The notes beneath the pieces are model-generated. The model was not told where the DNA came from. It was given only the letters and a program-made list of their open reading frames with translations, and did no database searches. From Escherichia coli (GTDB lineage Bacteria > Pseudomonadota > Gammaproteobacteria > Enterobacterales > Enterobacteriaceae): a stretch of DNA of 64,000 nt. Position numbers and translations under genes: made by a program. The stretch is from NCBI RefSeq assembly GCF_003334335.1, contig NZ_QOWQ01000009.1; one strand, written 5' to 3'. This document shows positions 17,968 through 34,816 of this stretch, in pieces; position 1 is the first letter of the stretch; each line of letters opens with the position of its first letter.

Positions 17968-18534
17968 ATGGCAACGTACTATAGCAACGATTTTCGTGCT
18001 GGTCTTAAAATCATGTTAGACGGCGAACCTTACGCGGTTGAAGCGAGTGAATTCGTAAAACCGGGTAAAGGCCAGGCATTTGCTCGCGTTAAACTGCGTC
18101 GTCTGCTGACCGGTACTCGCGTAGAAAAAACCTTCAAATCTACTGATTCCGCTGAAGGCGCTGATGTTGTCGATATGAACCTGACTTACCTGTACAACGA
18201 CGGTGAGTTCTGGCACTTCATGAACAACGAAACTTTCGAGCAGCTGTCTGCTGATGCAAAAGCAATTGGTGACAACGCTAAATGGCTGCTGGATCAGGCA
18301 GAGTGTATCGTAACTCTGTGGAATGGTCAGCCGATCTCCGTTACTCCGCCGAACTTCGTTGAACTGGAAATCGTTGATACCGATCCGGGCCTGAAAGGTG
18401 ATACCGCAGGTACTGGTGGCAAACCGGCTACCCTGTCTACTGGCGCTGTGGTTAAAGTTCCGCTGTTTGTACAAATCGGCGAAGTCATCAAAGTGGATAC
18501 CCGCTCTGGTGAATACGTCTCTCGCGTGAAGTAA
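17968..18534 (+). CDS. efp: Elongation factor P
   Basis: 188-aa [24 protein letters not shown]... Confidence 0.98.
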
Positions 18535-18585
18535 TGCGGTTGTGGTGCGGCCTGCAGGCTGCACCATCACTTATTCAGGTCAGAG

Positions 18586-18711
18586 ATGATGAAACGCCTT
18601 ATCGTTCTTGTTTTGCTTGCCAGCACGCTGCTCACGGGCTGTAACACCGCTCGCGGTTTCGGCGAAGACATCAAACATCTCGGCAACTCCATCTCTCGCG
18701 CTGCCAGCTAA
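18586..18711 (+). CDS. ecnA: Entericidin A (small antidote lipoprotein)
   Basis: 41-aa [41 protein letters not shown] with a lipobox; too short for the ORF track. Confidence 0.85.
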
Positions 18712-18821
18712 TTTTTCTTCTCTTCCGAAAAATCATCAGATTCCCATCATTTTTGGCGATGTTGTCTATTATTAATTTGCTATAGGCAAACATAAATAAC
18801 ATTACCTAAAAGGAAGACGTT

Positions 18822-18968
18822 ATGGTGAAGAAGACAATTGCAGCGATCTTTTCTGTTCTGGTGCTTTCAACAGTATTAACTGCCTGCAACACCACGCGTG
18901 GCGTTGGTGAAGACATTTCTGATGGCGGTAACGCGATTTCTGGCGCAGCAACGAAAGCGCAGCAATAA
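18822..18968 (+). CDS. ecnB: Entericidin B (small bacteriolytic lipoprotein)
   Basis: 48-aa [48 protein letters not shown]; paralogue of ecnA. Confidence 0.85.
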
Positions 18969-18971
18969 GCA

Positions 18972-19013
18972 ATAACGGTACGACAGCTGTGTCGTGCCGT
19001 TTGTTTTTTCTGC
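18972..19013 (+). terminator. ecnB intrinsic terminator
   Basis: CGGTACGACA-GCTG-TGTCGTGCCG hairpin followed by TTTGTTTTTTCTG. Confidence 0.7.
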
Positions 19014-19080
19014 GATAGTCACAAAGGTAATAGTTGAAATTCCCCTGCCACCTGGCAAAATATCCGTTCAACCATCAGCT

Positions 19081-19126
19081 TTGCAGGACGACCTGCAAAC
19101 GCCTCTTTTCACCGGGGACGGCCCCA
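19081..19126 (+). ncRNA. Guanidine-II (mini-ykkC) riboswitch-like leader upstream of gdx
   Basis: Two short hairpins each capped by an ACGR tetraloop (TTGCAGG-ACGA-CCTGCAA and GGGG-ACGG-CCCC) about 20 nt upstream of the gdx start; this architecture is characteristic of guanidine-II riboswitches. Confidence 0.65.
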
Positions 19127-19143
19127 ATTCTCCGGAGCCTGAT

Positions 19144-19461
19144 ATGTCCTGGATTATCTTAGTTATTGCTGGTCTGCTGGAAGTGGTATGGGCCGTTGGC
19201 CTGAAATATACCCACGGCTTTAGTCGTTTGACGCCGAGTGTTATTACTGTGACGGCGATGATTGTCAGTATGGCGCTACTTGCCTGGGCGATGAAATCGT
19301 TACCAGTAGGGACGGCTTATGCCGTGTGGACGGGTATTGGCGCAGTCGGCGCGGCCATAACCGGCATTGTGCTGCTCGGTGAGTCCGCTAACCCGATGCG
19401 CCTGGCGAGTCTGGCGTTAATCGTATTGGGGATTATTGGTCTGAAACTCAGCACTCACTAA
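19144..19461 (+). CDS. gdx: Guanidinium exporter Gdx/SugE (SMR family)
   Basis: 105-aa [26 protein letters not shown]...; start at the internal Met rather than the extended track ORF. Confidence 0.92.
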
Positions 19462-34628: not shown

Positions 34629-34704
<76 letters not shown>

Positions 34705-34740
34705 AAATTTGAAAAGTGCTGCAAAGCACAGACCACCCAA

Positions 34741-34816
<76 letters not shown>

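Follow-up and report, generated by a model that had tools for sequence, protein, structure and literature searches.

Two small genes between efp and sugE

The window, by which we mean the whole 64,000-nt stretch of Escherichia coli DNA that was analysed, carries on its plus strand two tandem open reading frames (ORFs) of 41 and 48 codons between efp and the short membrane-protein gene sugE (also called gdx) (Table 1). The original prediction had placed an entericidin gene pair at exactly these coordinates and had held that the ORF track missed it, and both statements are correct: the ORF lister has a default floor of 60 aa, above the length of either frame, and ecnA and ecnB emerge only with min_aa = 20. 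A spacer of 110 nt separates the two coding sequences, and the distance from efp to sugE in the window is 609 nt. An 801-bp query spanning the pair shows 100% identity with E. coli K-12 MG1655, among other strains, and it was matched in 5426 of 5426 complete E. coli genomes, almost always as a single chromosomal copy. At the same coordinates after conversion, the MG1655 RefSeq annotation has ecnA (WP_000977757.1, “lipoprotein antitoxin entericidin A”) and ecnB (WP_000239596.1, “lipoprotein toxin entericidin B”), in the gene order epmB, efp, ecnA, ecnB, sugE, blc, ampC, frdDCBA that is also found in the window. Compared with K-12 ecnAB, the DNA, the proteins and the genomic context are identical, with no difference within the locus.

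EcnA matched the NCBIfam equivalog model of entericidin A (NF007319) with 114.9 bits (cut-off 86, E = 1e-33), residues 1-41 lying on profile positions 1-41 of 41, and EcnB matched that of entericidin B (NF007487) with 121.9 bits (cut-off 94, E = 6.2e-36), residues 1-48 lying on positions 1-48 of 48. Since each protein scored only 44-47 bits on the model of the other, these assignments are unambiguous. EcnB residues 24-43 also match the Pfam family PF08085 (“Entericidin EcnA/B family”, model positions 1-20 of 20, i-Evalue 5.9e-07). Neither peptide failed to align with the entericidin models, and the equivalog scores, the RefSeq annotation and PF08085 all agree on the proposed identity: the two ORFs are ecnA and ecnB themselves, beyond mere similarity. 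The pair is already known, being annotated throughout the E. coli RefSeq genomes, and the entericidin locus ecnAB is said to have been described by Bishop et al. in 1998 (J Mol Biol 280:583).

Table 1 Features of the entericidin locus and its flanks, in window positions
Feature	Position	Strand	Description and evidence
efp	17968..18534		188 aa; upstream flank of the ecnA-ecnB pair
Strong hairpin 3' of efp	18538-18571	+	Just past the efp stop codon; ends 15 nt before the ecnA start
ecnA CDS	18586..18711	+	41 aa; ORF listing, RefSeq, NF007319, lipobox, synonymous variation
Inferred ecnB promoter core	18766..18786	+	Sequence reading and cross-genus conservation
ecnB Shine-Dalgarno sequence, AAGGAAG	18810-18816	+	5 nt before the ATG; sequence reading
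ecnB CDS	18822..18968	+	48 aa; ORF listing, RefSeq, NF007487, PF08085, conservation, published mass spectrometry
Predicted MicA pairing site	18823-18853	+	ecnB mRNA from start codon to codon 11; RNAduplex
ecnB intrinsic terminator	18974-19011	+	12-bp stem, GCTG loop, T-run; consensus scan and fold
Sigma-70-like sugE promoter	19034-19061	+	TTGAAA-16-CAAAAT with upstream TG
Guanidine-II (mini-ykkC) riboswitch	19080-19126	+	sugE/gdx 5' leader; Rfam RF01068, 50.4 bits (gathering score 32)
sugE/gdx	19144..19461		Short membrane-protein ORF; downstream flank of the ecnA-ecnB pair

Protein features and predicted export

Aligned with each other, EcnA and EcnB share 24 of 44 residues (55%, E = 4e-14) over a region that spans the PF08085 core, and at the sequence level they are paralogs. 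Both satisfy the PROSITE-type lipoprotein rule, which asks for a basic n-region, a hydrophobic h-region and a lipobox [LVI][ASTVI][GAS]C with the cysteine at positions 15-35, and the signal peptides and lipoboxes that had been expected of them are there. In EcnA, K3 and R4 lie in the n-region, the signal peptide covers residues 1-18 and the lipobox LTGC ends in Cys19, leaving a mature peptide of 23 aa; in EcnB, the corresponding features are K3 and K4, residues 1-21 and LTAC with Cys22, leaving 27 aa. The lipobox alone is no proof of a lipoprotein, since the same rule flagged 17 of the 960 ORF candidates with an ATG start in the window, of which several are evidently spurious.

From these sequences and general lipoprotein rules, both prolipoproteins would be exported by Sec and diacylglycerol-modified on the lipobox cysteine (Cys19 in EcnA, Cys22 in EcnB). 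Signal peptidase II would then cleave each of them and the new N-terminus would be acylated, giving peptides of 23 (EcnA) and 27 (EcnB) residues with a lipid anchor, which the Lol pathway would carry to the outer membrane. Sorting to this membrane is predicted because the residue at position +2 after the lipobox cysteine is Asn in both proteins, and not Asp. For EcnB, the Cys22 lipidation given in UniProt is a curator assertion, and the intact protein escaped top-down mass spectrometry, plausibly owing to its lipid (PMC12529367). The mature body of the peptides is amphipathic and Gly-rich and has the core CNT.RG.GEDI...G..IS.A. Provided that they are helical, mature EcnA and EcnB would be strongly amphipathic, with helical hydrophobic moments (0.62 and 0.43, respectively) above those of all 5000 residue shuffles. 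A search for solved structures of EcnB relatives gave no hit at E <= 1.

Sequence conservation and selection

We compared eight E. coli loci, namely the window and seven others chosen among the most divergent in the ranking. In ecnA, 13 nucleotides vary among them, 12 as synonymous changes and one as an amino-acid change located in the signal peptide (Thr14 to Ala), and in ecnB there are two synonymous changes and the protein is invariant, which makes 14 synonymous changes and one amino-acid change for both genes together. A 6-nt indel aligned at position 18960 corresponds to a short AGCAAT repeat across the ecnB stop codon and leaves the protein unaffected; the annotated ecnB is 147 nt long in all seven compared loci. 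Per 100 nt, the spacer between the two genes has 2.7 variable sites, the lowest value of any segment, against 10.3 in ecnA, nearly all of these synonymous.

For comparison across genera, loci of Salmonella and Klebsiella were taken from the “plasmids” collection. The order efp-ecnA-ecnB-sugE is retained in both, with the pair in tandem on the same strand, although the Salmonella locus has an additional gene for a LuxR-type regulator, ecnR, between ecnB and sugE, which is absent from the E. coli order. EcnB is identical to its Salmonella and Klebsiella counterparts at 46 and 44 of 48 residues, respectively (92-96%), with 22-23 synonymous codon differences, whereas EcnA is identical at only 33 and 25 of 41 (61-80%). 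The lipobox and the CNT.RG.GEDI core are retained in all six proteins from E. coli, Salmonella and Klebsiella. Both frames are genuine genes under purifying selection, since the nucleotide differences are nearly all synonymous within E. coli as well as across genera, and, judging from these comparisons, EcnB is far more constrained than EcnA.

Distribution, natural loss and plasmid records

The ecnAB genes form a core pair in 5415-5420 of the 5426 complete E. coli genomes, present in one copy at a fixed position, and in 11 of the 5426 the coverage of the ecnAB segment falls below 80%. At least one strain, UPEC129 (NZ_CP071522.1), has a clean natural deletion of both genes, with a gap of 101 nt between efp and sugE (positions 3001-3101 of its locus) where the window has 609 nt.

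The “plasmids” collection returned 13 ecnAB records, of which three were opened; several of the others are also multi-megabase. One of these “plasmids” is a mislabelled 5.4-Mb Klebsiella pneumoniae chromosome. Another, a 5.3-kb linear record in a K. oxytoca assembly, is 100% identical to ecnAB-sugE-blc-ampC-frdDC of E. coli K-12 and is probably a contamination. A 453-kb conjugative IncHI2A plasmid of Salmonella sp. (pPJT1-452kb, NZ_OM317741.1) carries a chromosomal-type segment with epmB, efp, ecnA, ecnB, the LuxR-type gene ecnR, sugE and a lipocalin gene. Most hits being mislabelled chromosomes or captured chromosomal segments, the 13 records offer no evidence of a plasmid-stabilising role.

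Terminators and the expression of ecnA

The two genes had been predicted to have a terminator each, which proved correct for ecnB and wrong for ecnA. A consensus scan found a sole canonical terminator after ecnB, with its stem at 18974-19001 followed by TGTTTTTTCT; it folds at -24.3 kcal/mol (z = -4.6), a stability reached by none of 200 shuffles. Its variation among the eight E. coli loci is limited to the loop (positions 18987 and 18989), and an equivalent hairpin lies 3' of ecnB in Salmonella and Klebsiella. This structure would also end any read-through transcript covering ecnA and ecnB. Downstream of ecnA, by contrast, neither the consensus scan nor the folding of 18680-18760 and 18690-18730 revealed a terminator: there is a T-rich run without a G+C-rich hairpin, the only stem consisting of 7 A/U base pairs, and the 81-nt region after the gene folds no better than expected (z = +0.24; 109 of 200 shuffles fold as well). 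The orthologous positions after ecnA in Salmonella and Klebsiella have no terminator either, and with scan, folding and both other genera negative, we rejected the ecnA-specific terminator.

A strong hairpin lies instead just before ecnA (Table 1). It folds at -24 kcal/mol (z = -2.8) and its stem is invariant among the eight E. coli loci. Because Salmonella and Klebsiella have a hairpin at the equivalent position, followed by a T-run, this structure is probably the terminator or an attenuator of efp, with a T-run that has degraded in E. coli. The ecnA gene, which has a second in-frame ATG at 18589, is preceded by a weak Shine-Dalgarno sequence (AGG at 18577-18579), and a scan for sigma-70-like promoters gave none in the stretch from efp to ecnA and a single hit elsewhere, that of sugE. 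With a weak ribosome-binding site, neither promoter nor terminator recognisable as its own and a start only 15 nt past the efp hairpin, ecnA probably depends on transcription that arrives from efp, either as read-through or from a promoter within that gene, and the transcript probably continues through ecnB.

Control of ecnB

The ecnB promoter, which lies in the 110-nt spacer, is known from published work (PMC5389655). It depends on sigma-38, is poorly recognised by the sigma-70 RNA polymerase and becomes active when stationary phase and high osmolarity coincide; RNA polymerase is made to pause at +17/+18 by a -10-like motif within the initially transcribed region, and the pause site is overlapped by a site for the repressor OmpR (PMC5389655). 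In the window, CTATTAT at 18766-18772 is the putative sigma-S type -10 element, and TGCTATAGG at 18778-18786 is probably the motif described as inducing the sigma-38 pause. The string GTCTATTATTAA.TTGCTATA is shared by E. coli and Salmonella, and Klebsiella retains part of it (GTCTAT..TATA in the comparison of the three genera).

Translation signals also differ between the two genes, since the ecnB Shine-Dalgarno sequence forms a strong duplex with the anti-Shine-Dalgarno sequence (-5.6 kcal/mol) whereas that of ecnA is weak (-3.2 kcal/mol). The small RNA MicA represses the ecnB mRNA in E. coli (PMC3551931). Using a MicA sequence verified by its location in the genome, flanked by luxS and gshA, and by its match to Rfam RF00078 (83.9 bits), RNAduplex paired MicA nucleotides 1-28 with the beginning of the ecnB coding sequence at -24.2 kcal/mol, compared with -11.9 +/- 3.0 for 500 shuffled targets, 0.2% of which reach this energy; the exact site listed in Table 1 is a prediction. 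With its own sigma-S promoter, OmpR, a strong Shine-Dalgarno sequence, MicA and its own terminator, ecnB is an independent and tightly regulated unit, probably yielding a short mRNA of ~230 nt that runs from this promoter to the terminator at 19011. The observation that inhibition of LolCDE induces ecnB together with the sigma-S regulon, and does not induce ecnA (PMC5105897), fits a separate control of the two genes.

Other elements in the window

A search for known RNA families in 18400-19200 at a permissive threshold found none overlapping ecnAB and only the guanidine-II riboswitch of sugE. The latter consists of two ACGR-loop hairpins, GCAGGACGACCTGC and GGGGACGGCCCC, directly before the sugE Shine-Dalgarno sequence. 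A second hit of the terminator scan (19080-19099) was discarded, being actually the first hairpin of this riboswitch. Upstream of its start, the sugE frame stays open through the riboswitch as a GTG-started ORF of 155 aa (18994-19461, plus strand); judging from the title of the original paper on sugE (Greener et al. 1993), this ORF is probably the longer one of its “two nested ORFs”. A 2025 review suggests that the multicopy suppression of groEL may in truth be due to ecnB, which the original suppressor plasmid carried, and not to sugE (PMC12186494).

Farther along, the window has two tandem tRNA-Gly(GCC) genes (34629-34816, plus strand), in contrast with the three of K-12, a difference that lies beyond the entericidin locus. 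Of the 12 records listed for this array, K-12 BW2952 and three more have three genes, and in the others the match covers no more than two; the 551-bp tRNA-Gly stretch is matched whole, in one piece, in only 105 of 5426 genomes, for example in E. coli KO11FL at 100%. Although its ecnAB region cannot be told from that of K-12, the window therefore probably comes from a different E. coli strain. A tRNA-Phe(GAA) gene, presumably pheU, lies at 4820-4895 on the minus strand. The pheU gene is a known hot spot for the integration of genomic islands.

Function of the entericidin pair

The possibility that both short ORFs are chance frames between efp and sugE, with accidental lipobox-like motifs, could appeal to the abundance of ORFs of 40-50 aa on both strands in this region and to the spurious window ORFs that the simple lipobox rule also flags. 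It is refuted by the equivalog E-values (1e-33 for EcnA and 6e-36 for EcnB), by substitutions that are mostly synonymous within and between genera, and by the identification of EcnB peptides by mass spectrometry (PMC12529367), and we regard it as vanishingly improbable. With a probability of roughly 0.9, we interpret the locus as the chromosomal entericidin pair ecnA-ecnB, encoding membrane-active, lipid-anchored peptides of stationary phase and envelope stress that constitute no proven addiction module.

What these peptides do is a matter on which several readings compete. The product names in RefSeq and NCBIfam, “lipoprotein toxin” and “lipoprotein antitoxin”, imply a genuine toxin-antitoxin (TA) or addiction module in which EcnB would be a pore-forming lipoprotein toxin and EcnA its stoichiometric antidote in a programmed cell death, with stationary phase and high osmolarity tipping the balance to lysis and a possible stabilisation of plasmids by post-segregational killing. 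The adjacency, paralogy and differential regulation of the two genes agree with such a module, as does the bacteriolysis provoked by overproduction of EcnB and counteracted by ecnA in cis (Bishop et al. 1998, as summarised in PMC7296081). However, the toxin/antidote label rests on one overexpression study that has since been questioned, a deletion of ecnA is viable in the Keio collection, and many Proteobacteria carry ecnB-like genes without ecnA (PMC7296081). EcnB is among the most consistently detected small proteins of E. coli in mass spectrometry, with up to ~70,000 copies per cell in growing cultures that do not lyse, in a proteomic study where EcnA is unreported and where EcnB rises more than 100-fold in a clpP deletion mutant, consistent with RpoS control (PMC12529367). 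The response to the LolCDE inhibitor, restricted to ecnB, also speaks against a TA module, as does the natural isolate without either gene. Moreover, TA loci are typically mobile and patchy, whereas ecnAB is a core chromosomal pair in single copy at a fixed position, with synteny conserved across genera. The separate control of ecnB, the absence of an intergenic terminator and the stronger constraint on EcnB likewise make the pair unlike a classical TA module, which on the whole we consider an unlikely interpretation.

Alternatively, the entericidins may be lipopeptides exposed at the cell surface or borne by vesicles, with their effect beyond the producer, in adhesion, in the docking of outer membrane vesicles (OMVs) or in bacteriocin-like antagonism, without self-killing. 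The predicted outer-membrane sorting conferred by Asn at +2 would suit such a function, and a series of observations on homologues points in the same direction: Atu8019, the EcnB homologue of Agrobacterium, is a surface-exposed lipoprotein secreted in OMVs that mediates OMV docking and has no lytic activity, which also counts against the TA module; OMVs of E. coli, Klebsiella, Shigella and Acinetobacter are reported to contain EcnB homologues; the entericidin secreted by Enterobacter C6-6 inhibits Flavobacterium; and Moraxella ecnAB mutants are less adherent (PMC7296081). Yet these supporting data do not come from the E. coli proteins, Atu8019 is a distant relative in a host without ecnA, and the lysis of the producer by its own EcnB and the suppression of this lysis by EcnA are left unexplained; action outside the producer seems to us rather unlikely. 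In a third reading, which we hold to be less likely than not, the TA label would be wrong and EcnB would be an abundant, extremely conserved lipopeptide of the outer membrane under sigma-S and envelope-stress control, serving a housekeeping function in the envelope or in vesicles, with EcnA as a faster-evolving paralog coupled to efp. The roles of EcnB may then include membrane remodelling, OMV docking and the multicopy groEL suppression credited to sugE.

The PF08085 relatives in Salmonella, Klebsiella and Agrobacterium (Atu8019) have in common with the E. coli proteins that they are small prolipoproteins with a lipobox and the mature core CNT.RG.GEDI..(G)..IS.A; unlike E. coli EcnB, which has EcnA as a partner, the non-lytic Atu8019 has none (PMC7296081). 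As in type I TA systems such as hok/sok and tisB/istR, a tiny membrane-active peptide is toxic when overexpressed and an sRNA pairs near the start codon, here MicA on ecnB. Entericidins are, however, exported lipoproteins and not inner-membrane helical peptides, and their proposed antidote is a paralogous protein instead of an antisense RNA. MicA itself is encoded in trans and, as an sRNA of the sigma-E regulon, acts on many targets, which sets it apart from a dedicated cis-antisense antitoxin. By description, the entericidins also resemble small sigma-S lipoproteins such as OsmB, which are short, Gly-rich and lipobox-bearing and are induced in stationary phase and at high osmolarity; to our knowledge, neither lytic activity nor an antidote paralog has been reported for OsmB. 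Under LolCDE inhibition, ecnB is co-induced with osmB, osmY and katE (PMC5105897).

The locus is a reference member of the entericidin family, for which every sequence-level test of membership came out positive, and finding it here carries little biological weight. Its methodological lesson is that a floor of 60 aa on ORF length conceals genuine and highly expressed small genes. If EcnB is indeed a housekeeping lipopeptide and EcnA its efp-coupled paralog, EcnA would be tied, via a leaky efp terminator, to the translation capacity of the growth phase and not to an addiction circuit.
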